Assembly (NCBI RefSeq): GCF_003231495.1
Contig: NZ_PQWO01000002.1
Span: forward strand, 1 to 32,000
Length of the DNA: 32,000 nt
Source of the DNA: Acaryochloris thomasi RCC1774
GTDB taxonomy: Bacteria; Cyanobacteriota; Cyanobacteriia; Thermosynechococcales; Thermosynechococcaceae
Reading direction: 5' to 3'
Made by a program: the position numbers and the translations under genes. Below are positions 1-28,362 of the stretch, in pieces. Position 1 is the stretch's first letter. Every line of letters starts with the position of its first letter. The notes below the pieces were generated by a model. That model had not been told where the DNA came from. It searched no databases and worked only from the letters and a program-made list of their open reading frames with translations.

Positions 1-2
1 CG

Positions 3-116
3 TTGCTCAGAACAATTGTGATTAATCTGCTGAGATTGAATGGCTTCCAATCGCTCAAAGCCGCTATGACAAAGCTTGCTAATCGGGTTGATGTTATTTT
101 TTCGCTGTTAACTTAA
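3..116 (+). mobile_element. 3' end of a transposase ORF cut by the window edge (possibly ISAs1/IS4-like)
   Basis: Frame 3 is open from the window edge to TAA at 114-116. It reads LLRTIVINLLRLNGFQSLKAAMTKLANRVDVIFSLLT*, which resembles from memory the C-terminal tail of cyanobacterial ISAs1-type DDE transposases. Only 37 codons are visible and no terminal inverted repeat was identified. Confidence 0.3.
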
Positions 117-256
117 AACAACCCTGTGTCTTCTGGATTGCATCTAGGTTTATTCCCCTCTATATTATGGGGAGTAGACCAGCGCACAACGAGAATTTCC
201 AATTCATTATTTGTATTATGAGTGTTGGTTGCTGTATGCCCTAGGATCTGTCGTGT

Positions 257-488
257 TCACAGATCTTCAAGTCGATCGCAAAAGTACAGTTTATACAATG
301 TACATCGCACCTCAACCTCATTCCCCTTCAGCCGCACTAATCCCAATAAACCCCTGCTCCGGTTTGATTCGTACCGGCTCTGACGCCTGCGCCACCGTTT
401 TCATTGCGATCGCAAGTTCAGGATGCGCCTGCAAGTGCGACCACAAATCCCGTAGATGCTGGGCATAGTGCCCATCAGCATTAGAACT
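257..488 (-). pseudogene. Frameshifted C-terminal relic of a cyanobacterial AAA-like-domain (pfam14516-type, STAND-related) protein
   Basis: Minus-strand translation of 488..321 gives SSNADGHYAQHLRDLWSHLQAHPELAIAMKTVAQASEPVRIKPEQGFIGISAAEGE*. One extra base in the CCCC run at 323-326 shifts the frame into GNEVEVRCTLYKLYFCDRLEDL* (stop 257-259). Removing one base restores ...ISAAEGNEVEVRCTLYKLYF..., which matches the conserved tail (GNxVxPxCxLYxxYF) recalled for this family. An in-frame stop lies at 489-491. Only broken frames lie upstream to about 660, so the N-terminal ATPase part is missing. Confidence 0.5.
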
Positions 489-666
489 TCAGCCCTGAAT
501 ATCCGCAAAGAGATCAAAAGCTATCCCTCATTGCGTCGTCATTGTATTGAAAGCCTTGAAGTGACCTATACGTATGCACAAGAACTCGTGTCACTTGAGT
601 CTCAACTTGACCTCGAAGCCTTCCCTGTGCCATGTCCTGCTGTAAGCAGCAAAGAGATCTAAACCT

Positions 667-1497
667 CTAATAGCGACTACTTTCTGCCCAAGGTGTCAGC
701 CAGTGAGATAAAAGCTTAAAGGAAAAATCCGTCAGCAGCCCAATCAGCCCAATCACCGCGATCGCAAATAAGACTTTATCCGTTTGCAAAAAACGCTGGG
801 CCTGCACGACCCGAAACCCTAAGCCATTGTCCGCCGCAATGAGTTCAGAAATTACCAAAAAGTTCCAGGCACCGGCAACATTGACCCGCAGCGTATCGAT
901 AATCCCCGGCACGATGCCCGGTAGAATCACGCGAGAGAGTACATCAACACGATTGGCTCCCAAGGTATAAGCCACGCTAAACAGCTCATTGGGGATGAAC
1001 TTCACCGTATCCGCCACCATAATCGCGTTGTAGAACACAATGCCCAAAAAGATAATTAAAATCCGGGCTAGCTCTCCCAAGCCTGCCCAGAGAATAATCA
1101 ACGGTACAAAAGCAGCCACCGGCATATAGCGAACCGTGCCGACAATAGGACTAAAGAGTCTCTCCATGCTTTGAAATGTTCCCATCGCAATTCCCATCGG
1201 AACGCCAATGGCGGCAGCCAGTCCAAAACCCAGCAGGACTCGATAGCAGCTACTCCAAATATCGAAGAGCAGATTATCTTCAAACAGCATCGTTCTCCCA
1301 GCCTGCAGTACGGCGGTAGGCGTAGGTAAAAAGATGGATTCAACGATGCCGCCATAGCTGAGGGCAGACCAGATCGCCAACGGGAAGGCTAGAGCAAACA
1401 CCACAAGGGCAACCCCTAACCCGTTGGGAAAAGGTTGACGAATACTCCAAAAGACCGAGGGACGCAGATAGCGCTTGGAGGAATTTGATGGCAGCAC
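667..1497 (-). CDS. ABC transporter permease, NitT/TauT (nitrate/sulfonate/taurine/bicarbonate) family
   Basis: 276-aa ORF with a GTG start. Multi-pass hydrophobic protein with an EAA-type cytoplasmic loop (VAYTLGANRVDVLSRVILPGIVPG) typical of TauC/SsuC/NrtB-like permeases. Confidence 0.85.
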   Translation of the reverse strand: MLPSNSSKRYLRPSVFWSIRQPFPNGLGVALVVFALAFPLAIWSALSYGGIVESIFLPTPTAVLQAGRTMLFEDNLLFDIWSSCYRVLLGFGLAAAIGVPMGIAMGTFQSMERLFSPIVGTVRYMPVAAFVPLIILWAGLGELARILIIFLGIVFYNAIMVADTVKFIPNELFSVAYTLGANRVDVLSRVILPGIVPGIIDTLRVNVAGAWNFLVISELIAADNGLGFRVVQAQRFLQTDKVLFAIAVIGLIGLLTDFSFKLLSHWLTPWAESSRY

Positions 1498-1710
1498 GTT
1501 GATGCTCCTGAGTGATTGTAAAGAAACTCTGACTCAAAAACCGATTATTCGCGGCCATGGAGCCTGACACTGTATAGAAACGAACATTTATGATGCCTCG
1601 CCCCGACTTTAATGAAGGTTGAGAAAAATAGCGATTGTTAGTGTCTGTCTCGCGGGCACCCGTTTTCTCGAAATTGCGGACTGCAGATTATTAGGAATGG
1701 TGGTTTCAGG

Positions 1711-2520
1711 ATGCTTCTAAACGCAACCGATATTAGTCGGCCCCTAACCCCGCCCACCCCGATTGCCAAGCTACAGGTGCAGGGAATCACCAAAAGCTTT
1801 CGCCGCAGCCGAAAGCCTTTGACCGTCCTTGACGATGTCAATCTACACCTAAGCAAGAGTGAGTTTGTCTGCATCGCTGGAGCCTCAGGCTGCGGCAAGT
1901 CAACCTTGCTGAACATTATTGCGGGCCTACTGCCGCCCTGCGAAGGCCAGGTTTTAGTGGATGGTGAACCTGTCCCTGGCCCCGGTGCTGATCGGGGAAT
2001 GGTGTTCCAGAGCTATACGCTCTATCCCTGGCTCACGGTGGCCAATAATGTCGCCTTTGGCCTCAAGCTCCGTCGTTTACCTAAAGCACAAATGCGGGAG
2101 CGCGTGGGGTACTTTCTCAATATTGTCGGCCTGAGTGCTTTTGCTAGTGCCTACCCCAAAGAGCTTTCTGGAGGGATGAAGCAGCGGGTTGCCATAGCAC
2201 GTGCCCTGATCAACGGGCCAGAAGTCCTGCTGATGGATGAACCCTTTGGTGCCTTAGATGCCCAAACAAAGGAAAAAATGCAGCAGTTCATGCTGGAGCT
2301 ATGGGAGAAAACCCGCACCTCGATCTTGATGATCACCCACGACCTTGAAGAGGCCATTTATTTGGCCCAGCGCGTCTACGTCATGAGTGCCCACCCCGGC
2401 AGGATCCAGCAGGAGATCAAGATTGATCTGCCTCCAGAGCGAGAACTCGATCTCAAGCTCAGCCCTAAATTTATCCAGACCAAGCGTGAGCTGATTGAGA
2501 GCTTGCGGGCCGTTGCCTAG
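1711..2520 (+). CDS. ABC transporter ATP-binding protein, NitT/TauT family
   Basis: Walker A GASGCGKST, signature LSGGMKQR, Walker B LLMDEPFGALD, H-loop ITHD. About 30-aa N-terminal extension. Divergent from the permease gene. Confidence 0.9.
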   Translation: MLLNATDISRPLTPPTPIAKLQVQGITKSFRRSRKPLTVLDDVNLHLSKSEFVCIAGASGCGKSTLLNIIAGLLPPCEGQVLVDGEPVPGPGADRGMVFQSYTLYPWLTVANNVAFGLKLRRLPKAQMRERVGYFLNIVGLSAFASAYPKELSGGMKQRVAIARALINGPEVLLMDEPFGALDAQTKEKMQQFMLELWEKTRTSILMITHDLEEAIYLAQRVYVMSAHPGRIQQEIKIDLPPERELDLKLSPKFIQTKRELIESLRAVA

Positions 2521-2574
2521 CGTTTGATTTTTTCTGCAAGAGTGACCCTAAATTCGATCAAATAGAAGGTTGAT

Positions 2575-3588
2575 ATGACTGCCGCTGCCTTAGAGATCAA
2601 GCAATTTATACAGAGTAAAAATCGTCTGTGGAATGCGTTTGCGATCGCATATACAGGGTTAACCTACCTAGGCGGCATTGCTCTTTTTTTGCTGCCGCAG
2701 GTGGGACTGAACCTACTCGGCGTGGTCGTTTTGACCCATAGCCTGTTGGTTTCGGCCTACTTGGCCCATGAGTTGATGCACAGTAATTTGTTCGAGAGTC
2801 GAGCGCTCAATGTGGCCTGGGGCAACGTCATGTTGTGGATCAACGGAGCCATTTATACACCGTTTGATGAGCTGATGCGGCTGCACATTGCCCATCATGT
2901 TGATCGGGTTGATTTCTATCGGTTTGATCTAGAGACCTTTTTAAAGGATTTACCCACGCCTCTACGCCAGATTTTGCTAGGACTGGAGTGGCTCTATATT
3001 CCGTCCCTGGCTTTTTTGCTGCGCTTCCGGGTGATGCTGGCCCCCTTCTGGAACCCTGAACATAAGGAGGAGCGCCTACGCACGGCTTTGTTAATGTTGG
3101 TGCGGGGCAGTCTATTTGCCCTGCTGGGGTTTCTCTCTCCTAAAGCGTTGGGGCTTTACTTTCTTAGTTATGTCGGCATGATCACCGTCCTGCGGTTTAT
3201 GGATGCCTTTCAGCACACCTATGAGGTTTTTGCCCTGGGTGAACCACTGCCGAAACGCGATCGCATCTACGAGCAGGCGAATACTTTCTCAAACGTGGTT
3301 TCCCTGCGTTATCCCTGGCTCAATCTATTGCTACTCAACTTTGGCTACCACAACGCCCATCATGAACTGATGAAATGCCCCTGGCACAGCCTGCCCGAAC
3401 TGGACAAGACCCTATTCACAGGTGCAGAACCCCACTACATTCCCCTGGGGCGTCTGCTCGGAAACTATCATCGCTATCGTGTCTCACGTATTTTCTCCGG
3501 CCAAGGCAGCGCGATCAACGAAACGGGAGAGCCAACGCTGGATCGTTTCTATGGTGGAATTGAGGTCTCATTTCTGCTACCGTCTTAA
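2575..3588 (+). CDS. Membrane fatty-acid-desaturase-family di-iron protein
   Basis: 337 aa with N-terminal transmembrane helices and three histidine boxes: HELMH, HIAHH and HNAHH. Substrate not assignable from sequence. Confidence 0.75.
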   Translation: MTAAALEIKQFIQSKNRLWNAFAIAYTGLTYLGGIALFLLPQVGLNLLGVVVLTHSLLVSAYLAHELMHSNLFESRALNVAWGNVMLWINGAIYTPFDELMRLHIAHHVDRVDFYRFDLETFLKDLPTPLRQILLGLEWLYIPSLAFLLRFRVMLAPFWNPEHKEERLRTALLMLVRGSLFALLGFLSPKALGLYFLSYVGMITVLRFMDAFQHTYEVFALGEPLPKRDRIYEQANTFSNVVSLRYPWLNLLLLNFGYHNAHHELMKCPWHSLPELDKTLFTGAEPHYIPLGRLLGNYHRYRVSRIFSGQGSAINETGEPTLDRFYGGIEVSFLLPS

Positions 3589-3609
3589 AGCTCTTTCCCT
3601 GGCCTACGC

Positions 3610-4506
3610 TTGTCCTCTCCCTTGCCCCAATCTCAAAAATCGACGCTCTCTGGGATTGGATTTGCGATCGCAACCGCTCTTCTTTTTGGTTCTGGCACGC
3701 CCCTCTCCAAACTACTGCTAGATCAAACAGACCCCTGGATGCTGGCGGGCCTTCTATTTCTGGGGGGCGGCTGTGGCCTCCTGCCTATCGTCCTATTGCG
3801 GCACCCATTCCAGAAGCCAGACTATGTTCAATCCGGAGAGTGGCGCTGGGTTTGGAGTTCAACGCTGGCCGGAGGCATCGCGCCTATCCTGTTAATGGTC
3901 GGTCTAAGTACAGCATCGGCTTCATCGGTTGCGCTACTGCTGAATTTTGAAGCCGTGTTCACTGCCATTTTGGCCTGGACCGTTTTCCGAGAACGCTGGC
4001 AGTGGCCGGTCTTTCTGGGCATTATCCCGATCACGGTGGGGGGCATTCTGCTTTCTCAATCCACTGAGGCTAAAGGAGCCGGATGGAGCTGGGGGTCGCT
4101 AGCGGTGCTGGGTACCTGTCTCGCCTGGGCCATCGACAGCAATTTGACGTTCCGAGTGTCTCATCGTGACCCGTTTCAGATTGCCTTGATCAAGAATGGG
4201 GTTGCGGGGATAGTGAACGTTGCGATCGCATCCTTGATTGGCCAGCAATTTCCCGACGGGTCTACGCTCATCCAGATCGGTGGCGTCGGCTTTCTTTGCT
4301 ACGGACTCACCTATTGCTGTTTTGTCCTCGCGCTTCGATGCATTGGTTCCTCACGCACAGCGGCTTTCTTTGCCCTTGCCCCTTTAGTCGGTTCTGCCAT
4401 CGCCGTTGTTGTGTTGCATGAAACGGTGACAGCAGGAGTTGCGATCGCAGCCCTAATCATGACCGGGGGCGCACTGCTCTGTGCATGGGAGCCGCAAGCA
4501 CGATGA
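3610..4506 (+). CDS. EamA/DMT-superfamily transporter
   Basis: 298-aa polytopic membrane protein with about 10 hydrophobic segments arranged as two EamA-like halves. TTG start 22 bp after the desaturase stop; the start codon is uncertain. Confidence 0.7.
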   Translation: MSSPLPQSQKSTLSGIGFAIATALLFGSGTPLSKLLLDQTDPWMLAGLLFLGGGCGLLPIVLLRHPFQKPDYVQSGEWRWVWSSTLAGGIAPILLMVGLSTASASSVALLLNFEAVFTAILAWTVFRERWQWPVFLGIIPITVGGILLSQSTEAKGAGWSWGSLAVLGTCLAWAIDSNLTFRVSHRDPFQIALIKNGVAGIVNVAIASLIGQQFPDGSTLIQIGGVGFLCYGLTYCCFVLALRCIGSSRTAAFFALAPLVGSAIAVVVLHETVTAGVAIAALIMTGGALLCAWEPQAR

Positions 4507-4557
4507 TTAGGGAAGCCAGCGATCTCATGGGTTAGAAAGTTATCGCTTTTTGTATGG

Positions 4558-5229
4558 CTAACGAAAATTACAGGCGATGCCAGACCACAAATGGGTAATG
4601 ACACCCTTGGGCTGATTATTAGAAAGCAAGCCAAATAAGCTATCGGAGGCATTAAACTCTGTGCCTAAACTACTTTCGATCACGTCAACGCGATAGCTTG
4701 CTTCCAAATCAGTCAGCGTTTTGCCTAAGCCAATACCATCAACGGTTGTCAAATTGGCACTCTCCGCCTCTGGACGCACTGACCAACCCACAAACTGATT
4801 CTGCATGGCGTTCATGGTTAAGCCATTCGGCCAACTGATAAAACTCATGGGGCCAGCACCGCACTCATTCTCTTGTGCTATTTCTGTTGGCTGTCCTAGA
4901 GTCGCAGAAACAGCAGCTTGGGCAGTGGCCAGATCTGTATCGAAAGAAATGGATCGAGCTTTGCCAGACTGCTCTTCGATGACTAACAAGCCCTCTCCAG
5001 ACAGGGCGAGAACTAAGTCTGCCGAGCCTTCTGCTGATGCCTCAACTGCGCCATCCGTGGCAGACTCCCTCTCGACAGATGTAGAGTCTGAACGTTCTAA
5101 CGGCTGCTGAGATAGCTCTGGGATATCATTATCAGCACCTCCAGAGTTCTCATCACTACAGGCCATCATCGGCAACATGAGAAATAGATTCAAGGGCAAG
5201 AGCATCAAGAATCTGTTTGGTCTAGGCAT
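4558..5229 (-). CDS. Putative secreted lipoprotein, unknown function
   Basis: From Met15 of the tracked ORF the N-terminus reads MPRPNRFLMLLPLNLFLMLPMMAC-SDE, a signal peptide plus a lipobox-like Cys. An acidic low-complexity linker and a globular C-terminal half follow. Alternative start at 5271. Confidence 0.55.
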   Translation of the reverse strand: MPRPNRFLMLLPLNLFLMLPMMACSDENSGGADNDIPELSQQPLERSDSTSVERESATDGAVEASAEGSADLVLALSGEGLLVIEEQSGKARSISFDTDLATAQAAVSATLGQPTEIAQENECGAGPMSFISWPNGLTMNAMQNQFVGWSVRPEAESANLTTVDGIGLGKTLTDLEASYRVDVIESSLGTEFNASDSLFGLLSNNQPKGVITHLWSGIACNFR

Positions 5230-5510
5230 AGTCCTTACAAGAGTAAGAGGTTGATCAGAAAGATATTGCAAATCTCATTCAATATGTAGCAGTTTATACG
5301 TCTGAGTGAGGACAACCTGACTTTATCGCGGTACACATATTGATTAGGGCATAAAAATGGCTGAGCCCCATCTGTGCTAAAGAAGGGCTGTTCTGACTCC
5401 GCCGGGTGCTGCTTGGCATAGTGTTCGGCCTTTGGGTGCCCTTATCAGCTATCTGGCGACAATACTAGCGACACGAGCATGCGCTTGCCCTGTGCCTGCA
5501 GCCAAAGAAA

Positions 5511-5572
5511 TTGACGGTACAAAGAGACGCAGGCTAAACTGTGACCCTTCAGTCACATGACTGTTCGGTCAC
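5511..5572 (+). promoter_or_regulatory. Candidate sigma70-type promoter plus double-palindrome operator upstream of the TetR gene
   Basis: TTGACG (5511-5516), 18 bp spacer, TAAACT (5535-5540). Two abutting 16-mers follow immediately: GTGACCCTTCAGTCAC (5541-5556) and ATGACTGTTCGGTCAC (5557-5572). The ATG is at 5588. Confidence 0.55.
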
Positions 5573-5587
5573 AGCTCTACGCAAGCC

Positions 5588-6289
5588 ATGCCCACCCAAA
5601 CCTTTTTCAATCTTCCGGACAACAAGCGTCAGAAATTCGTTGAGATTGCGATCTCAGAATTCGCGCGTCATGACTACAACAGTGCTTCGATTACCAAAAT
5701 TGTGGCGACGGCAAAAATCGCTAAGGGCAGCGTCTATCAATATTTCAAGGACAAAAAGGGACTCTACCTGTATCTGATTGAGTTTGCTACCGAAGAGAAG
5801 CTGACCTTCTTGAAAAATACAGAGCAACCCGAATCAGCAAATTTTTTCGACTATCTGCGGTGGCTGTTCCACGCCAGCGTTCTCTTCGATTTTGAACACC
5901 CGACGCTGAGTCAGTTGGTCTATCGGGCTAGGTATGGCACGCTGCCGTTTCGAGATCAGGTGCTAGCGCAAACCAAGAAAGCCTCTAGTGGCTATATTGA
6001 GCAACTCGTCGAGCGCGGCATTGCCCAGGGCGATATTGACCGCGATATTGAACCGGATCTCGCAACCTACATGGTCAACACGCTGGCCAGTGAGATCGGA
6101 AGCCTGATTTTCGACCGTTTAGAGATCGATCCACATCGCCTGGCTGAAGAAGGCCCCCTGGCTGACATTGATATGAAGGTAATTGAACAGATTTTTGATG
6201 AGTTGCTTCAAGTTCTCGAGCGAGGGATGGGGCGCAAAACTAAGCCATCAATGAAGCAAGCAAAGGCCCCATCTTCAGCAAAAACCTGA
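5588..6289 (+). CDS. TetR/AcrR-family transcriptional regulator
   Basis: N-terminal TetR HTH (YNSASITKIVATAKIAKGSVYQYFKDKKGLY), an all-helical ligand-binding domain and a lysine-rich tail. Confidence 0.9.
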   Translation: MPTQTFFNLPDNKRQKFVEIAISEFARHDYNSASITKIVATAKIAKGSVYQYFKDKKGLYLYLIEFATEEKLTFLKNTEQPESANFFDYLRWLFHASVLFDFEHPTLSQLVYRARYGTLPFRDQVLAQTKKASSGYIEQLVERGIAQGDIDRDIEPDLATYMVNTLASEIGSLIFDRLEIDPHRLAEEGPLADIDMKVIEQIFDELLQVLERGMGRKTKPSMKQAKAPSSAKT

Positions 6290-6482
6290 GCGCTTCTGAC
6301 CCAAAATTCCCTATAGCCTTTCAGCTCTTTTACGGCATGGGCTAGGTCTTTGGTATTCACCGGACTGATTGTCTAATGTTCAGTCTCTTCTTTGCCATGC
6401 GTGGTGACTTGATGGCCTTATCCCGCGTGGCGTCGCTGCTGGCTGAGGCCACTAAGCGCACGCGAATGCAATTAAGCATGAA

Positions 6483-6543
6483 TTGGCAAACCTAGGTTCA
6501 TTCGCTAGAATGTGACCAGCTGGTCACGTGGCTGAAGGGTCAT
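6483..6543 (+). promoter_or_regulatory. Candidate sigma70-type promoter plus double-palindrome operator upstream of the Coq4-like operon
   Basis: TTGGCA (6483-6488), 17 bp spacer, TAGAAT (6506-6511). A perfect 16-bp palindrome GTGACCAGCTGGTCAC (6512-6527) and then GTGGCTGAAGGGTCAT (6528-6543) follow immediately. The 32-mer closely matches the reverse complement of 5541-5572. Confidence 0.6.
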
Positions 6544-6585
6544 GTCGCCATTTAGCGTTTTAAGTTTCACAAGGTAACGACCATC

Positions 6586-7254
6586 ATGGTTAGCATTAAG
6601 CGCTTCATCAAATCAATCCGGGACTACTACGCTGAAGGTCAGGTCGGAGACATTGCATTTTTAAAAATCAAGCTCTTGGGCCTGAGCGCGACGCCTGAAC
6701 TCTTGGCTCAACTGCAAGACTTGGCAGGCTACGCCCCTGAAATCGATCTCGACGCGCTCAGTCAGCTTCCTAAAGGAACGTTGGGGTACGAGTATGCTCA
6801 GCACATGCACAAGAACGGGATCCTCCCTCTTGTCATCAGCCCCGATTTGCAGATAGAAGCTCAGCAAGCCCCCTTTGCGCTGCGCTATACCACTACCCAC
6901 GATATGTTCCACGTGCTGCTGGGGTTCGATACTAGCTATGCCGGTGAAGTTGGAGTGTTTGCTTTTATGGCTGCTCAAAACTACAGCTCGTTCATCAATG
7001 CAGCTCTCCCTATTATGAGTAAGATTTATCCGCTGATCTTTTGGGGGCAGAGACAGTCAATGATTGCCAATATCCAGGCAGGAAAGGCGTTGGGTGAACA
7101 GGCCAAATGCCTACTGGCTTACCGCATTGAAGATCACTGGGCACGCCCAATTGCCGATATTCGCTCTGAATTAGGGCTGGTTCTTGAAGGGAGCGACTTG
7201 GCTCAGGACATGCAAGACAATCTCTTATACAAAGCGGCAGAAAGTATTGCCTGA
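6586..7254 (+). CDS. Coq4-family protein (paralogue 1)
   Basis: 222 aa. Carries the Coq4 signature HDxxH-x11-E (HDMFHVLLGFDTSYAGE). Alignable over its full length with the next gene. Confidence 0.75.
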   Translation: MVSIKRFIKSIRDYYAEGQVGDIAFLKIKLLGLSATPELLAQLQDLAGYAPEIDLDALSQLPKGTLGYEYAQHMHKNGILPLVISPDLQIEAQQAPFALRYTTTHDMFHVLLGFDTSYAGEVGVFAFMAAQNYSSFINAALPIMSKIYPLIFWGQRQSMIANIQAGKALGEQAKCLLAYRIEDHWARPIADIRSELGLVLEGSDLAQDMQDNLLYKAAESIA

Positions 7255-7324
7255 CATCTCTTCTAATAGATGTTTTCAGCCTAACTGAAGCATCCAAGCT
7301 GTTCAAGCACTGAGGAAAACCGCA

Positions 7325-7990
7325 ATGACCAGTATTAAGCGCTTCATCAAAGCCTATAAAGACTACTTAACGGAAGGAGAGACCGGAGACGCTGCACTCC
7401 TCGAAAGCCAGCTTTATGGATTCGGCACCCATCCTGATCTGCTGAAACAACTGCAGGGGTTAGCAGACTACTATCCCACGATTGATTTAGAGCAACTCCG
7501 TCAACTCCCCAAAGGCACTTTAGGGCATGAATATGCCCAGCACATGCAGGACAACGGAATTCAACCGTTAGAAGTCAGTGATGATCTGAAAGAAGAAGCC
7601 AAGCGTCATCCTTTCGCGCTGCGCTACACCGTCACCCACGATATCTTTCACATTTTGCTAGGGTTTGATACCAGCTATTCTGGTGAAGCTGGCGTATTCG
7701 GGTTTACCGTGGGGCAGAACTATACAAAAACGCTGAATCTAACCTATCCTCTCATTAAGCTAATTCTCGTACTCATTAAGCCGTGGCAAGCGCAGGACAT
7801 CTTGGCCAGCGCCCGCAGAGGTAAAAAACTGGGTGAGCAGGCGGACTGCTTGTTGGCCTATCCGTTTGAAGAAAACTGGACACGCTCCATTACCGATATC
7901 CGAGCTGAGTTAGGGTTAGTTTCAGGAGGCAAACCGTCAAAGCGATCGGCAAGGGAAATTGCGAATGTTCTGCCTAGCGCCGCAGCTTGA
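7325..7990 (+). CDS. Coq4-family protein (paralogue 2)
   Basis: 221 aa. Signature HDIFHILLGFDTSYSGE. Shares blocks with paralogue 1: SIKRFIK, QLPKGTLG-EYAQHM, PFALRYT, LGEQA-CLLAY. Confidence 0.75.
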   Translation: MTSIKRFIKAYKDYLTEGETGDAALLESQLYGFGTHPDLLKQLQGLADYYPTIDLEQLRQLPKGTLGHEYAQHMQDNGIQPLEVSDDLKEEAKRHPFALRYTVTHDIFHILLGFDTSYSGEAGVFGFTVGQNYTKTLNLTYPLIKLILVLIKPWQAQDILASARRGKKLGEQADCLLAYPFEENWTRSITDIRAELGLVSGGKPSKRSAREIANVLPSAAA

Positions 7991-8032
7991 TGCCCTAGCC
8001 TGAGGCCGTATCACCCAACCAAGGAGACTTCC

Positions 8033-8767
8033 ATGCTTGAGTACCGCAATAACCCCACAGACAATATTGTTGAAATCATCGTTGAAGGCCAGCTGACGGA
8101 GGCAGACCTTGACCAGATTATCGCTCAGCTCAAGATTGACCTTGATAAGCACGGCAAGCTCAGGCTACTGGAAGAAATTCGCAGCTTTGAAGGCATCGAC
8201 CCGATCGCACTCTGGAAAGATGCTCAGTTTGGGTTGACCCACGTGGATGACTTTACCCATGCGGCGGTGGTTGCCGAGGCTGAATGGGTACGGACCATTT
8301 CTGCGGCAGCAGACAACATTTTATCGGCTCAGGTAAAAGCCTTCGAACCCTCTCAAATTGAGGCCGCCCGGACCTGGCTGCAGATGGCGCCGGAGTTAGA
8401 TCAGCTATCGGGCATGGAGTACAGGAGCAACGCTGAAAATAACGTTATCGAGATTATTGTCGAGGGCAAGATTACGGTGGCAGACTTTGATCGAATTGTG
8501 CCTTTGATCAAGACTGACTTGGCGAAGCATGGCAAGGTGAAAGTCCTAGAAGAAATCCGCAGCTTTGAGGGCATGGACCCGATGGCGCTGTGGCAAGATT
8601 TGCAGCAGGCCTACATGGTCAAAGACATCACCCATATCGCATTGGTGGCCGATGCCCAGTGGATGCGGACCATTGCGGAAGCCGTGAGCGCGATTTTCCC
8701 GGCTGAGATTAAGGCGTTTGAGCGATCGCAAATAGAAGCCGCGCGGACGTGGCTCGCAAATGCCTGA
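8033..8767 (+). CDS. Tandem-domain STAS/SpoIIAA-like (STAS_2/SEC14-type, DUF3478-like) protein
   Basis: 244 aa built of two homologous halves, about 8033-8392 and 8414-8764. Each half contains EYRxN..N-IEIIVEG, KHGK, LEEIRSFEGxDPxALW and VKAFExSQIEAARTWL. AAGGAG RBS at 8021-8026. Confidence 0.65.
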   Translation: MLEYRNNPTDNIVEIIVEGQLTEADLDQIIAQLKIDLDKHGKLRLLEEIRSFEGIDPIALWKDAQFGLTHVDDFTHAAVVAEAEWVRTISAAADNILSAQVKAFEPSQIEAARTWLQMAPELDQLSGMEYRSNAENNVIEIIVEGKITVADFDRIVPLIKTDLAKHGKVKVLEEIRSFEGMDPMALWQDLQQAYMVKDITHIALVADAQWMRTIAEAVSAIFPAEIKAFERSQIEAARTWLANA

Positions 8768-8821
8768 TTAGAGAGGCGCAATGGTTCGTAGTTGTCAGAT
8801 TAGAGTCGCCCAGCTGGCGCT

Positions 8822-9991
8822 CTACTCTCTTGATCTCGAAGCATCAGCAAGCAATCTCTTCCAGCTCAGGTCACCCGTTTTGGGATTTTGATGCCAGCGC
8901 AATAGGGCCGATGCAGGTTGCCCTAGTCCAATACCTGGTAGTCCGATGGCTTTGCGGGGGGCTTCCGTGGCTAAAGCAATCGCCTGTTCCACAGAGCAAA
9001 TGCGCCAGCGGACGAGGTTCTGGACACCCTGCAGTAGCGATAGTGTTGTCCCCGAGAGGGTCCCATCCGGCAGACGAGCGGTCCCATTCTTCACTTCGAT
9101 CTGCCGCGTATCCCAGGGATAAACGCCATCCGGGAGGCCCAGGGGAGAAAGAGCGTCACTGACTAGGAATAGTCTCTCAGGACTGGCCTGCAGTAAAAGC
9201 TTCAGCATTAACGGATCAATATGCTGGCCGTCGGCAATAAACCCGCACCAGACCTTTGGCTTCACTAGAGCTGCCGCTAACAGCCCTGGCTGGCGATGGT
9301 GGAGGCTGGGCATCGCGTTAAAGGCGTGGGTGACCATTGTGGCTCCCTTGTGAAACGCAGCCTCTGCCTGCTCTGCTGTTGCTTGAGAATGACCTAGGCT
9401 GACGATGATATTGCGATCGCAAAGATATGAAATCGCATCTCCCTCTACATCTAACTCGGGCGCTAACGTCATCACCTTAACGACATCTGCGTGTGGACCC
9501 AGCACCTGCTGCAGATCAGAGATTGTTAACGGCCGCAAATATTCTGCGGGATGAGCCCCTCTCTTTTCAAAATTGAGGCAGGGACCTTCGAGGTGGACCC
9601 CAAGAATTTTAGCCGTGGGCTGTGTGGATGAAGATGGGCCATGATTCACCACTGCCAGCGCTCGATGAATCTTTTCGACAGCGGTGGTCACAACGGTCGG
9701 CAAATAGCCATCGACACCCTGCCGCCAAAGCAATTGTCCAATTTCTTGAAGCTTCGGCTGATCGGCCTCTGTGAGATCAGGGAAGGCTAAACCCAAGGCA
9801 CCATTGATTTGCAAATCAACGCCGCCCAAAGACAACCAGTCTTCTTCAAGATCAAGGTGGCTAAGGGCTAGGGGAGACTCAATACCAGTCAGCGGGTGGA
9901 TGGCCTGAATAAGATTTTGCTGATCAACCCAAACCTGCTGCAGTCCTTGACAACCCGGAACCTGCGCTCGGTCAATACAAAGCTTCAGCAT
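8822..9991 (-). CDS. nagA: N-acetylglucosamine-6-phosphate deacetylase
   Basis: 389 aa of the amidohydrolase fold with NagA blocks: HLEGPCLN, SLGHSQAT, VTHAFNAM, FLVSDALSP. Confidence 0.85.
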   Translation of the reverse strand: MLKLCIDRAQVPGCQGLQQVWVDQQNLIQAIHPLTGIESPLALSHLDLEEDWLSLGGVDLQINGALGLAFPDLTEADQPKLQEIGQLLWRQGVDGYLPTVVTTAVEKIHRALAVVNHGPSSSTQPTAKILGVHLEGPCLNFEKRGAHPAEYLRPLTISDLQQVLGPHADVVKVMTLAPELDVEGDAISYLCDRNIIVSLGHSQATAEQAEAAFHKGATMVTHAFNAMPSLHHRQPGLLAAALVKPKVWCGFIADGQHIDPLMLKLLLQASPERLFLVSDALSPLGLPDGVYPWDTRQIEVKNGTARLPDGTLSGTTLSLLQGVQNLVRWRICSVEQAIALATEAPRKAIGLPGIGLGQPASALLRWHQNPKTGDLSWKRLLADASRSRE

Positions 9992-10003
9992 TGGTCGTTG
10001 ATG

Positions 10004-10306
10004 CTAACTAGTTTGAACCGCTCCTGACGGGGGTGTTGAGTCCGCTGAGGCACCGCTGGCCTTCGTTTCTTCAACCGGTGATAGTTGAATGTGGTTTAAC
10101 AGGGTGGTGACGAAGGCAAAGAGCAGGAAGGGTAGCGAAAGCACCAGGATCAATCCCCCGGTCAGAAAGGCGTAGACTGGATTTTGGTACATGGCGACGG
10201 AGGTTGCTAAGCTCAGGAAGATCACGATTAGCCAAATGATCACCTGCGCGTAGATATCGCCAAAGGTGAGGGTGCAACGAAATTGATACCCTTGTAACGG
10301 ATTCAT
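10004..10306 (-). CDS. Small two-TM membrane protein, unknown function
   Basis: 100 aa with an ATG start, two long hydrophobic helices and a Ser/Pro/Ala-rich tail. It ends 12 bp upstream of nagA on the same strand, so co-transcription is likely. Confidence 0.5.
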   Translation of the reverse strand: MNPLQGYQFRCTLTFGDIYAQVIIWLIVIFLSLATSVAMYQNPVYAFLTGGLILVLSLPFLLFAFVTTLLNHIQLSPVEETKASGASADSTPPSGAVQTS

Positions 10307-10516
10307 TGGAGAGTCCTCAAAAAGAATTAAAATCTTTCAATATCAGCTATGAAAGCATCTGCTGCTGCGTTCTAGCAAAAACTAAAGATCAATGAAGATT
10401 TGTTTGTCTAAATTTTAAACAAAATTCCAAGAAAACTTGATGCTTTTACATAAAACGATAGGTCTTGCTCCTGGATGGCTGAGTCTGTGGAGCTGTAGTG
10501 CAAGGATAGTGAGTGT

Positions 10517-11041
10517 ATGAGTCAACCCGAAGTTGCCGTGATTATGGGGAGTGACTCCGACCTGCCCACCATGCAGGATGCGATCGCAACCCTAACAGCC
10601 TTTGACCTCCCCTGCCACGTTGAAATCATCTCCGCCCACCGCACCCCGGAACGGATGGTGGACTTCGCCAAGACCGCTCACCAGAACAACATTAAAGTCA
10701 TTATTGCCGGGGCCGGTGGCGCGGCTCATCTGCCGGGGATGGTGGCCGCTCTCTCTCCTCTGCCGGTGATTGGGGTGCCGATCAAAAGCCGCGCCCTACA
10801 GGGAATCGATTCGCTATACTCTATCGTCCAAATGCCCGGTGGGATTCCGGTGGCGACGGTTGCGATTGGCAATGCTAAGAATGCGGGACTACTGGCCGTT
10901 CAGATTTTGGCCGCTCAGCGTCCTGATTTGTTAGATAAAGTGATGGAATATCGCCAAAATCTAGCAAATTCGGTTCATACTAAGCAAGAGCAGTTAGCTG
11001 AGCTAGGTTACGAGAAATATCTCGCAGCGCAGACTTGTTAG
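10517..11041 (+). CDS. purE: 5-(carboxyamino)imidazole ribonucleotide mutase
   Basis: 174 aa with classic PurE blocks: IMGSDSDLPTM, SAHRTPE, AGGAAHLPGMVAA. Confidence 0.95.
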   Translation: MSQPEVAVIMGSDSDLPTMQDAIATLTAFDLPCHVEIISAHRTPERMVDFAKTAHQNNIKVIIAGAGGAAHLPGMVAALSPLPVIGVPIKSRALQGIDSLYSIVQMPGGIPVATVAIGNAKNAGLLAVQILAAQRPDLLDKVMEYRQNLANSVHTKQEQLAELGYEKYLAAQTC

Positions 11042-11077
11042 CCTTCATTAAGGTCGTTGCTTGAGACTGAGGGACCT

Positions 11078-12223
11078 ATGCCAACACAGCCAATCGGATC
11101 TCTATTCTGTGAGCGCGCCTGGATCACAATTGATTTAGATGCATTGGCTCACAACGCTCGGCAGCTCAAAAAGAGCCTGCTGCCGCAGACAGAACTGATG
11201 GCGGTGGTCAAGGCTGACGGCTATGGGCATGGGGCCGCAACGGTGGCCCGCACGGTGCTTGAGCAAGGCGTGACGTGGCTGGCGGTCGCCACAATCCTCG
11301 AAGGGAAAGAGCTGCGTCAGGCTGGAATTACCGCGCCAATTTTGCTGCTGGGAGCGGTGCAGGCCCCGCAGGAGGTGGATGCGATCGCATCCTGGCAGCT
11401 TCAGCCCACGCTGTGCAGTCCGAAGCAAGCGCTGGCGGTGTCTCAATATGCCAAGCAGCCCACTTCCGTACACATCAATATCGACACCGGTATGTCTCGG
11501 CTCGGGCCGCTGTGGCAGCAGGGGGCCGCTTTTATTGAGTTTGTGGCAACGCTGCCTAACCTGCAGATCGCCAGCATTTACTCTCACTTTGCAACCGCAG
11601 ATGATGCCGATTCCAGCTTCATGGAAACGCAGCAAAGCCGTTTTCAGACGCTCACGCAGCAGATTCAAACGGCAGGTATTCTTCAGCCTAAGCTACATTT
11701 GGCGAATTCCGCAGGGACACTCAGCGGCCCGCAATACCATTACGATCTGGTGCGGGTTGGCTTAGCGCTCTATGGTTTATACCCCGAGGCAAAATTCCGG
11801 CAAGAGATTCACCTGCAGCCGGTCATGCAGCTCAAGGCCAGGGTGACACAGATCAAGACCCTGCTGGCAGGTACTGGCGTTAGCTACGGTCATACCTACG
11901 TGACGCCCCAAAAAATGAAGGTGGCCGTCGTGGGGATTGGCTATGCAGATGGGGTGCCTCGACCGTTATCGAATCGAATTACGGCCCTGATTCGGGGGCA
12001 GCGGGTGCAGCAAATTGGCTCGATCACAATGGATCAGTTGATGATCGATGTCAGTCAGGTTCCGAATGTGGGTATTGGTGATGTAGTAACGCTGCTGGGG
12101 CAAGACGGCGAAGCAAAAATTCCAGTGGAGACTTGGGCCGATCTGTTAGGAACGATTTCCTATGAAATTGTCTGTGGTTTTAAGCCTCGCCTGCCCCGAG
12201 TGAGCGTTATGAAGACGCTCTGA
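11078..12223 (+). CDS. alr: Alanine racemase
   Basis: PLP-lysine motif VVKADGYGHG, plus SHFATADD and GYADG blocks. The ATG at 11078 is preferred over the tracked TTG at 11057. Confidence 0.9.
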   Translation: MPTQPIGSLFCERAWITIDLDALAHNARQLKKSLLPQTELMAVVKADGYGHGAATVARTVLEQGVTWLAVATILEGKELRQAGITAPILLLGAVQAPQEVDAIASWQLQPTLCSPKQALAVSQYAKQPTSVHINIDTGMSRLGPLWQQGAAFIEFVATLPNLQIASIYSHFATADDADSSFMETQQSRFQTLTQQIQTAGILQPKLHLANSAGTLSGPQYHYDLVRVGLALYGLYPEAKFRQEIHLQPVMQLKARVTQIKTLLAGTGVSYGHTYVTPQKMKVAVVGIGYADGVPRPLSNRITALIRGQRVQQIGSITMDQLMIDVSQVPNVGIGDVVTLLGQDGEAKIPVETWADLLGTISYEIVCGFKPRLPRVSVMKTL

Positions 12224-27684: not shown

Positions 27685-28362
27685 ATGGCGAAATCTGAGA
27701 GTCCAGTTCGAGTTTTATTGGTGGATGATGAAGCAATTGTCCGCTATGGGCTTAAAGCTGTTGCTCGATGTACTGCGGAGATAGAGATCGTTGGGGAGGC
27801 TTGCGATGGTGAAGATGCGATCGCAAAAGCTAAATCACTTCAGCCTGACGTCGTTCTCATGGATATCAGTATGCCTTTGATGAATGGTGTTGCGGCAACT
27901 GGACACATTTGTCGAGCACTGCCAGGCGTGAAGATTATGATTCTAACGACACATGATGATGTTCAACATTTAACAGAGGCGATGCAGCAGGGCGCAGTGG
28001 GATACTTGCTCAAGAATACGCCGCCTGAAGATTTTGTCCAAAGTATCCAAAGTGCTTATAAAGGCTACATGCAGTTTGGCCCTGGTTTAGGTCAAAAGCT
28101 CCTGCAGCAACGCCAGCCCGTGACCCGTCAGACACAGCTTGATAAGCTAGTGGATGTAACGCCTCGAGAGCAGGATGTGTTGAAGCTAATTTGCGAGGGG
28201 GCGAGCAACCGAGAGATTGCTCAAGCACTTCACATCACTGAAAAGACAGTCAAAAATCATGTCAGCAGTATTTTGAGCCAGGTTGGTGTGAAGTCGCGGA
28301 CGCAGCTTGCGATTTGGGTTAATAACGGCGGCGCTCACTCTTCTCAGCTTTTATCTGTCTGA
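27685..28362 (+). CDS. NarL/FixJ-family response regulator (REC + LuxR HTH)
   Basis: REC domain (LLVDDEAIVR, VVLMDISMP, ILTTHDD) and a C-terminal LuxR-type HTH (LTPREQDVLKLICEGASNREIAQALHITEKTVKNHVSSIL). Confidence 0.9.
   Translation: MAKSESPVRVLLVDDEAIVRYGLKAVARCTAEIEIVGEACDGEDAIAKAKSLQPDVVLMDISMPLMNGVAATGHICRALPGVKIMILTTHDDVQHLTEAMQQGAVGYLLKNTPPEDFVQSIQSAYKGYMQFGPGLGQKLLQQRQPVTRQTQLDKLVDVTPREQDVLKLICEGASNREIAQALHITEKTVKNHVSSILSQVGVKSRTQLAIWVNNGGAHSSQLLSV

Follow-up and report, generated by a model that had tools for sequence, protein, structure and literature searches.

The opening 32,000 nucleotides of contig NZ_PQWO01000002.1 of the cyanobacterium Acaryochloris thomasi RCC1774 (NCBI RefSeq assembly GCF_003231495.1; this entire stretch is referred to as the window) contain a gene for a TetR family regulator (tetR, 5588-6289), followed by a unit of two Coq4-like genes and a STAS-type gene (6586-8767); palindromic DNA elements directly follow the -10 hexamers of the two respective promoters. 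The locus raises the question of whether these elements are operators through which the TetR protein controls its own gene and the Coq4-Coq4-STAS operon, as an earlier note on the same DNA had suggested. Very probably this is the case: RTGAC-N6-GTCAY is proposed as the operator unit of the TetR protein, which would repress both tetR and the Coq4-Coq4-STAS operon and would be released by a ligand. The TetR interpretation is supported by comparative genomics, from which we infer DNA binding, stoichiometry, the sign of regulation, the positions of the transcription starts and the existence of an inducer.

Tandem palindromes at two promoters

Site 1 (5541-5572) and site 2 (6512-6543) each consist of two abutting 16-mers of the form RTGAC-N6-GTCAY; their sequences, coordinates and preceding -10 hexamers are exactly those given in the earlier note. 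A promoter scan predicts the tetR promoter on the forward strand as TTGACG-N18-TAAACT, with the -35 hexamer at 5511-5516 and the -10 hexamer at 5535-5540, the latter abutting the operator. The first operator unit of site 1, O1a (GTGACCCTTCAGTCAC, 5541-5556, strandless), matches GTGAC-N6-GTCAC exactly and includes the predicted transcription start; O1b (ATGACTGTTCGGTCAC, 5557-5572, strandless) follows in register. The predicted Coq4 operon promoter, also on the forward strand, combines the -35 hexamer TTGGCA (6483-6488) with the -10 hexamer TAGAAT (6506-6511) across a 17-nucleotide spacer; it is the best promoter match of the region (10/12), and within 5200-9000 only these two promoters give sigma-70-like matches on the forward strand. 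Its -10 hexamer again abuts the operator, which begins with O2a (GTGACCAGCTGGTCAC, 6512-6527, strandless), a perfect 16-bp palindrome and an exact copy of the motif, and continues with O2b (GTGGCTGAAGGGTCAT, 6528-6543, strandless), a weak unit that carries G at position 4, where A is otherwise invariant.

Exact matches to GTGAC-N6-GTCAC occur only twice in the 32 kb, as the first unit of each site, and the second units follow in register with one (O1b) or two (O2b) mismatches; the earlier statement that the window has no further pair of this kind agrees with the scan. A position weight matrix (PWM) was built from 157 units of orthologous loci in other genomes, and the window was then scanned with it. 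The three top-scoring units, O2a (21.2 bits), O1b (21.1 bits) and O1a (18.1 bits), all lie in the two sites; the next scores are 9.4 bits at 28120 and 9.3 bits for O2b at 6528. The lone near-match at 28120-28135 (GTGACCCGTCAGACAC), which stands inside the open reading frame (ORF) 27685-28362 without a second unit beside it, can probably be put down to chance. For the two sites themselves, chance has next to no probability as an explanation: loose matches with up to two mismatches are indeed common (18 observed versus 9.8 expected), yet abutting pairs in 300 dinucleotide-preserving shuffles scored at most -1.5, versus 30.4 and 39.2 for the real pairs, so that no shuffle (0/300) contained a comparable pair; together with the conserved position across 66 loci, as described below, this result excludes chance.

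The earlier characterization of the two 32-mers as near-identical is too strong: one pair of units matches at 14/16 positions including all six spacer bases, the other pair at just 10/16, and the elements as a whole at 24-25/32. The spacer of one unit (CTGAAGG) is exactly common to both sites, and the two 32-mers form the top inverted repeat of the region; with 78% complementarity, they are better described as two instances of one motif.

Conservation of the proposed operator in tetR orthologs

The check proposed in the earlier note, whether orthologous loci keep the motif, was run with one genome per species on 80 loci with TetR relatives of 29-82% identity, 78 of which include enough upstream sequence. 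According to their record titles, these loci come from Cyanobacteria, Chloroflexota, Bacillota, Bacteroidota, Spirochaetes and others, and represent at least five phyla. One or more perfect RTGAC-N6-GTCAY units lie within 150 nucleotides upstream of tetR at 66 of the 78 loci, and two or more units at 59 of them. Among the 157 perfect units, 138 are found in these upstream regions, which account for 11.7 kb of 708 kb; compared with the remaining locus sequence, the enrichment is 432-fold.

The units share the consensus R-T-G-A-C-Y-R-N-N-Y-R-G-T-C-A-Y (RTGACY-N4-RGTCAY) and occur singly, as abutting pairs, or as abutting triples, always with a period of 16 nucleotides when abutting; since the unit number varies from one to three at this fixed period, each 16-mer is taken to be one binding unit, and a 32-mer to comprise two of them. 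Cyanobacterial orthologs have the promoter architecture of the window, in which a TTGACA-like box, a spacer of 17-18 nucleotides and a -10-like hexamer immediately precede the first unit; examples are TTGACA...TAAGCT followed by GTGACC (L001), TTGACA...TAGGAT followed by GTGACT (L018), and TTGACG...TATGCT followed by GTGACC (L081). A palindromic operator that overlaps the promoter of the regulator's own or an adjacent gene, which is a criterion for the TetR/AcrR family, is thus predicted at this locus.

The arrays also differ among phyla. Three abutting units are found at several Chloroflexota tetR loci, and in Bacteroidota (L053, L059, L065, L066, L067 and L080) the two units do not abut but lie 32-33 nucleotides apart from start to start, corresponding to approximately three turns and the same face of the DNA.

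The Coq4 promoter in related gene clusters

Genes for TetR relatives that are 60-83% identical to the TetR protein of the window are followed by membrane fusion protein (MFP) and RND efflux genes. The complete contig of locus L086, the closest relative with a complete cluster and with a tetR that is 83% identical, shows the order tetR-MFP-RND-MscS-Coq4-Coq4-STAS and two operator pairs, one at tetR and one before Coq4. Its Coq4 promoter reads TTGGCAAACC...TACGAT followed by ATGACCATGCAGTCAT ATGACTAACTAGTCAC...TTTAAGTTTCACGAGGTAAC, to be compared with TTGGCAAACC...TAGAAT followed by GTGACCAGCTGGTCAC GTGGCTGAAGGGTCAT...TTTAAGTTTCACAAGGTAAC in the window; the L086 counterpart of O2b is perfect, and, judged by their sequences, the two promoters are plainly orthologous. 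Coq4-Coq4 loci from marine metagenomes (L089-L091 and L105; approximately 63% protein identity) have TATAAT with an operator pair directly after it, and the promoter-operator layout before Coq4 is kept in L086, L089-L091 and L105 at 63-69% protein identity. No tetR gene was found in the available flanks of these marine loci, which for L090 and L091 include 8 kb upstream; tetR and Coq4 genes occur within one cluster in L018, L021, L087 and L123. Near the Coq4 homologs with at most 51% identity (L093-L122), neither an operator nor a tetR gene is present; these homologs constitute a different subgroup and are uninformative either way. A recent origin of site 2 as an inverted copy of site 1, considered in view of the identical spacer, was rejected since the Coq4 promoter-operator is orthologous in L086 and the marine loci.

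These comparisons also bear on the possibility that only the tetR site works, and that the Coq4 site is weak or vestigial, with the operon mainly under the control of read-through or other factors. The imperfect O2b, the absence of a terminator-like site between tetR and the Coq4 promoter in a simple scan, and the predominance among close relatives of a single operator upstream of tetR that serves the whole tetR-MFP-RND operon are compatible with such a scheme; it is nevertheless distinctly unlikely, because O2a is the top-scoring unit of the window and abuts the best promoter match of the region, and because the layout is conserved in the loci just named.

The motif has decayed where the regulator is missing, and locus L088 provides a natural control. 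Locus L088, from a metagenome-assembled genome, has flanks that are 88-92% identical to the window; the segment matching 4508-6572, which comprises a gene for a 237-residue protein, tetR, and both promoters, is replaced by 131 nucleotides. The L088 operator (GAAACTACACGGTCAC GCGACTGTTGAGTTAC) has decayed, with four mismatches at conserved positions; Coq4 gene B has a 450-nucleotide internal deletion, and Coq4 A is just 73% identical (L088 1-1700 compared with window 4095-7866). These losses indicate that regulator, operator and target genes decayed together.

The decay of the motif upon tetR loss argues against binding by some other regulator, for example of the CRP/FNR type, to which the neighboring TetR would be unrelated. 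CRP recognizes the half-sites TGTGA and TCACA at N6 spacing. Site 1 reads TGTGAC...GTCACA, and its first unit with flanks, TGTGA-N8-TCACA, resembles these half-sites; however, the spacing is N8 instead of N6, the flanking T and A vary among orthologs, and the location downstream of the -10 hexamer is no position for an activator. The motif furthermore accompanies this tetR family in phyla as distant as Bacillota and Bacteroidota, and control by a CRP-like protein is accordingly very improbable.

Some features of the related clusters may be added. The L086 cluster (1-11890) is flanked by a phage-type integrase gene and a helix-turn-helix (HTH) gene on one side and by a DUF4158 gene on the other, and may be mobile. 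At the marine Coq4-Coq4 loci, the place of the STAS gene after the two Coq4 genes is taken by a small membrane protein. The gene directly upstream of their operator-bearing promoter is an ORF of 329 residues (L090 6801-7790) that, from a reading of its sequence, looks Rieske-type oxygenase-like.

Missing efflux genes in A. thomasi

MFP, RND and MscS genes are absent from the A. thomasi locus, where the adjacent genes are Coq4-like and STAS-like. Compared with close relatives, in which tetR-MFP-RND(-MscS) is followed by Coq4-Coq4-STAS, the A. thomasi locus is, by its gene order, a reduced form. A search of the 296-nucleotide spacer between tetR and Coq4 detected no remnants of MFP, RND or MscS genes, and the choice between loss here and gain elsewhere therefore rests on parsimony: the pump accompanies more than 10 cyanobacterial orthologs, and an MFP::Coq4 fusion occurs in L087. 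A search with the L086 MFP returned no A. thomasi-labelled protein among the best 120 matches (to 49% identity), many of which are unnamed; given also that the assembly is a draft, this is weak evidence for an A. thomasi assembly without the pump. The earlier view of an autoregulated TetR with a downstream three-gene module is consistent with the operators kept at tetR and at the Coq4 promoter, but the module was not ancestrally "tetR plus three genes."

The fusion in L087 (Coleofasciculus) was called as a single gene (8462-9952) after tetR, encoding a 496-residue protein with an MFP N-terminus joined to Coq4, and is followed by Coq4 and STAS genes. By its gene content it looks like the outcome of a deletion of the RND and MscS genes; if so, it would represent a second, independent pump loss.

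Symmetry of the 32-mers

The two-unit operators from loci L001-L123 were aligned together with the two sites of the window (alignment A3; n = 59). Variable spacer positions and outer positions co-vary about the center of the 32-mer, with 84.7% of cells paired versus 80.3 ± 0.7 in shuffles, and none of 500 shuffles reached the observed value; within each 16-mer of these 59 operators, no co-variation was detected (347/500 shuffles reached the observed value). Perfectly complementary spacers occur at 8 loci versus 0.3 expected, and create perfect 32-bp palindromes with species-specific spacers. The commonest two-unit pattern has GTGAC at the outer and ATGAC at the inner position. The co-variation is weak in the window's own sites, where the spacers are complementary at just 3/6 and 1/6 positions.

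Such symmetry could suggest that the palindromes act mainly through nucleic acid structure, as RNA hairpins at the 5' end or as DNA cruciforms that set mRNA stability or transcription, with protein recognition secondary or absent. The excess of complementary spacers fits this idea, and the 32-mer RNA hairpins of the window are stable, at -15.5 kcal/mol (z -3.6) and -14.7 kcal/mol (z -2.8). Yet it is the sequence (TGAC/GTCA, invariant across phyla) and not the fold that is conserved: site 1 is predicted to fold into one long hairpin and site 2 into two short ones, and the structure is weak in L086. For the Coq4 leader as a whole, the predicted stability does not exceed that of shuffled versions (z -0.88), an Rfam scan of 5000-9000 at E ≤ 1 gave no RNA family, and the window's spacers show the limited complementarity noted above. 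Orthologs with single units, triple arrays, or units 32-33 nucleotides apart are likewise difficult to accommodate, as is the association of the motif with one protein family across phyla. A primarily structural role consequently has little probability.

The TetR protein and its characterized relatives

The tetR gene (5588-6289, forward strand; C1752_00577, with a 100% NCBI match) encodes a protein of 233 residues with a TetR_N and a TetR_C_5-like Pfam domain. The N-terminal HTH domain (PF00440) scores 37.1 bits (cut-off 24) at residues 21-62, and the all-helical C-terminal ligand-binding and dimerization domain (PF21256, TetR_C_5-like) scores 46 bits (cut-off 27). The recognition helix is nearly invariant (I44, A45, K46, G47, S48, Y50, Q51, Y52 and F53) in 29 family members of 37-83% identity, which matches the invariance of TGAC/GTCA in the operator units.

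The closest characterized DNA-binding domain belongs to HrtR of Lactococcus lactis, a heme-sensing TetR family repressor of hrtRBA that adjoins an exporter (PDB 3VOK, 3VOX and 3VP5). The similarity extends over residues 1-90 (E = 2e-11) and covers the recognition helix as well as a conserved MPxxT(F/Y)F stretch at the N-terminus. The HrtR operator, which we take to be ATGACACAGTGTCAT, would share the half-sites ATGAC and GTCAT with the units described here. K46 and Y50 of the window TetR align with R46 and Y50 of HrtR (3VOK), which make base contacts to G11 and T12 of a palindromic operator with a one-nucleotide center; AibR, with Lys47 and Tyr51 at the DNA-reading positions, has K in place of R, as does the window TetR (PMC5389471). 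In contrast to the one-nucleotide center of the HrtR palindrome, six bases separate the TGAC and GTCA cores here, and the units of the window, unlike the HrtR operator, stand in abutting pairs. HrtR is autoregulated (PMC7858072), as proposed for the window TetR. The alignment ends near residue 90 of 233, the rest of the window TetR has no match to HrtR, and its C-terminal domain belongs to another family; heme sensing should therefore not be assumed. Nor do genes for an hrtBA-type exporter of an FtsX-type permease and an ATPase adjoin tetR in the window. Beside some distant tetR orthologs, genes for large permeases and for an ATPase do occur (clusters c2 and c4; identities read by eye from the sequence).

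A full-length homolog of the same subfamily is PDB 3NRG, a TetR family regulator structure (TetR_C_5-like, PF21256) deposited under a generic name (E = 9e-55 over residues 1-216; family profile E = 1e-77). No operator, target or ligand for 3NRG is described in the literature searched, in which text matches to 3NRG concerned other subjects. The operator motif, in several spellings, did not occur in the papers searched; the literature search on cyanobacterial TetR/RND operons gave nothing relevant, and in the single paper to mention both Coq4 and TetR for cyanobacteria, the two appear in passages that have nothing to do with each other.

Other known systems resemble the predicted arrangement in part. 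QacR-type operators accommodate two TetR family dimers, which overlap the transcription start of the target and jointly occupy a single long inverted repeat. The present prediction likewise places two dimers over the transcription start at each operator; the difference is that every dimer would be provided with a complete 16-bp palindrome, and that the unit number among orthologs ranges from one to three. FhtR of Enterococcus faecalis shares with the present prediction the two separate palindromes per promoter, the control of an adjacent operon, and relief by a ligand; both of its 14-nucleotide palindromes, in the -10/-35 region of hrtBA, were shown to be repressor-bound (PMC7858072). The FhtR boxes are of the TTATCAATCGATAA type and lie in the -10/-35 region, whereas those of the window abut each other and start after the -10 hexamer; FhtR is furthermore reported to have no significant similarity to HrtR, and is not autoregulated (PMC7858072).

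Predicted mechanism and significance

Most likely, one TetR dimer would bind each 16-mer, and hence two dimers each 32-mer; with dimer centers 16 bp, or approximately 1.5 helical turns, apart, they would approach the helix from roughly opposite sides. Counted from the end of the -10 hexamer, the operators would extend from about -1 to +31; since both 32-mers start at the base after this hexamer, they cover the predicted transcription start and approximately the first 30 transcribed bases, the starts being predicted near 5546-5548 and 6517-6519 from the usual distance of 6-8 nucleotides to the -10 hexamer. By occluding the start region, the repressor would keep open complexes from forming or prevent promoter escape, resulting in negative autoregulation of tetR at site 1 and in repression of the Coq4-Coq4-STAS operon at site 2, until a probably hydrophobic ligand of the C-terminal TetR domain releases the repressor from both sites.

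Several observations weigh against this model. The weakness of O2b implies that site 2 may perhaps accommodate one strong and one weak dimer, and the Coq4 promoter may consequently be less tightly shut. Twelve of the 78 orthologous loci have no perfect unit in the 150 nucleotides upstream of tetR; in at least L011, L026, L034 and L041 among them, a unit pair is located farther upstream. The simple scan detected no terminator-like site in the interval from tetR to the Coq4 promoter, so that transcription started at the tetR promoter could run on into the Coq4 operon. Finally, the co-variation about the center of the 32-mer is not predicted by simple independent dimer binding; it might result from a symmetric arrangement of two dimers (four subunits) on intrinsically asymmetric units, or alternatively from quasi-palindrome template-switch mutation on unconstrained spacers.

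An autoregulated TetR repressor with tandem palindromic operators over the transcription starts is a well-known kind of switch; the A. thomasi locus would be an ordinary example, and the understanding of such switches is unchanged. Less usual are the lack of an efflux pump at this locus and the predicted membership of Coq4-like genes in the regulon. What appears to be undescribed in the literature searched is the operator of the 3NRG-like subfamily, its conservation across phyla, and the inclusion of cyanobacterial Coq4-like genes in the regulon. A candidate operator (RTGACY-N4-RGTCAY, in arrays of one to three) can now be assigned to a widespread TetR subfamily for which a structure (3NRG) has been solved but no target described, and which in at least five phyla adjoins RND, ABC-type and other exporter genes. 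The poorly understood cyanobacterial Coq4-like genes are at the same time placed in a predicted ligand-inducible, efflux-type regulon and not in a housekeeping pathway; their membership narrows the substrate search, since the releasing ligand would be a candidate for the substrate or a relative of it. Lacking adjacent pump genes, the A. thomasi locus is a convenient minimal system for the operators. As a tentative and rather doubtful extension, the signal to which the PF21256 TetR subfamily responds could be a hydrophobic aromatic or prenylated quinone-type compound, and Coq4-Coq4-STAS could supply inducible enzymes and a carrier for the modification of this compound, under a control once shared with an RND pump and an MscS-type channel. 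If true, this would provide the first physiological and genetic handle on the function of bacterial Coq4 homologs.

Other genes of the locus

The three-gene unit on the forward strand starts with Coq4-like gene A (6586-7254; 222 residues), whose product is identical to C1752_00579 and is homologous to PDB 6E12 (Alr8543; E = 5e-15), followed by Coq4-like gene B (7325-7990; 221 residues), which pairs with gene A in L086 and L089-L091. Both proteins contain the Coq4 domain PF05019, with 64.3 and 59.2 bits (cut-off 22.9; E = 1e-17 for gene A). The Coq4 metal motif HDxxH-x11-E (as defined in PMC10680789) is present in gene A, and its residues H105, D106, H109 and E121 are invariant in 26 homologs; C1 oxidative decarboxylation in quinone biosynthesis has been shown for eukaryotic COQ4 only (PMC10680789). 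The unit ends with the gene at 8033-8767, whose product contains two SpoIIAA-like (STAS-type) domains (PF11964 in two stretches; E = 3e-51); this gene comes after the Coq4 genes in L086, L087 and L088 as well. The genes are separated by gaps of 70 and 42 nucleotides, and the downstream neighbor gene is convergent; the simple scan found no terminator-like sites between or after the three genes, its sole forward-strand match (7163-7177) lying inside gene A.

Divergent from tetR, on the reverse strand, the 237-residue ORF at 4558-5271 has a lipoprotein-signal-like N-terminus (…LPMMAC…) and no Pfam or NCBIfam match; it has no counterpart in the syntenic L088 or at other tetR loci. In the window, the STAS-type protein (244 residues) is a tandem SpoIIAA-like duplication, and L086 (11178-11573) encodes a single-domain version of 131 residues.

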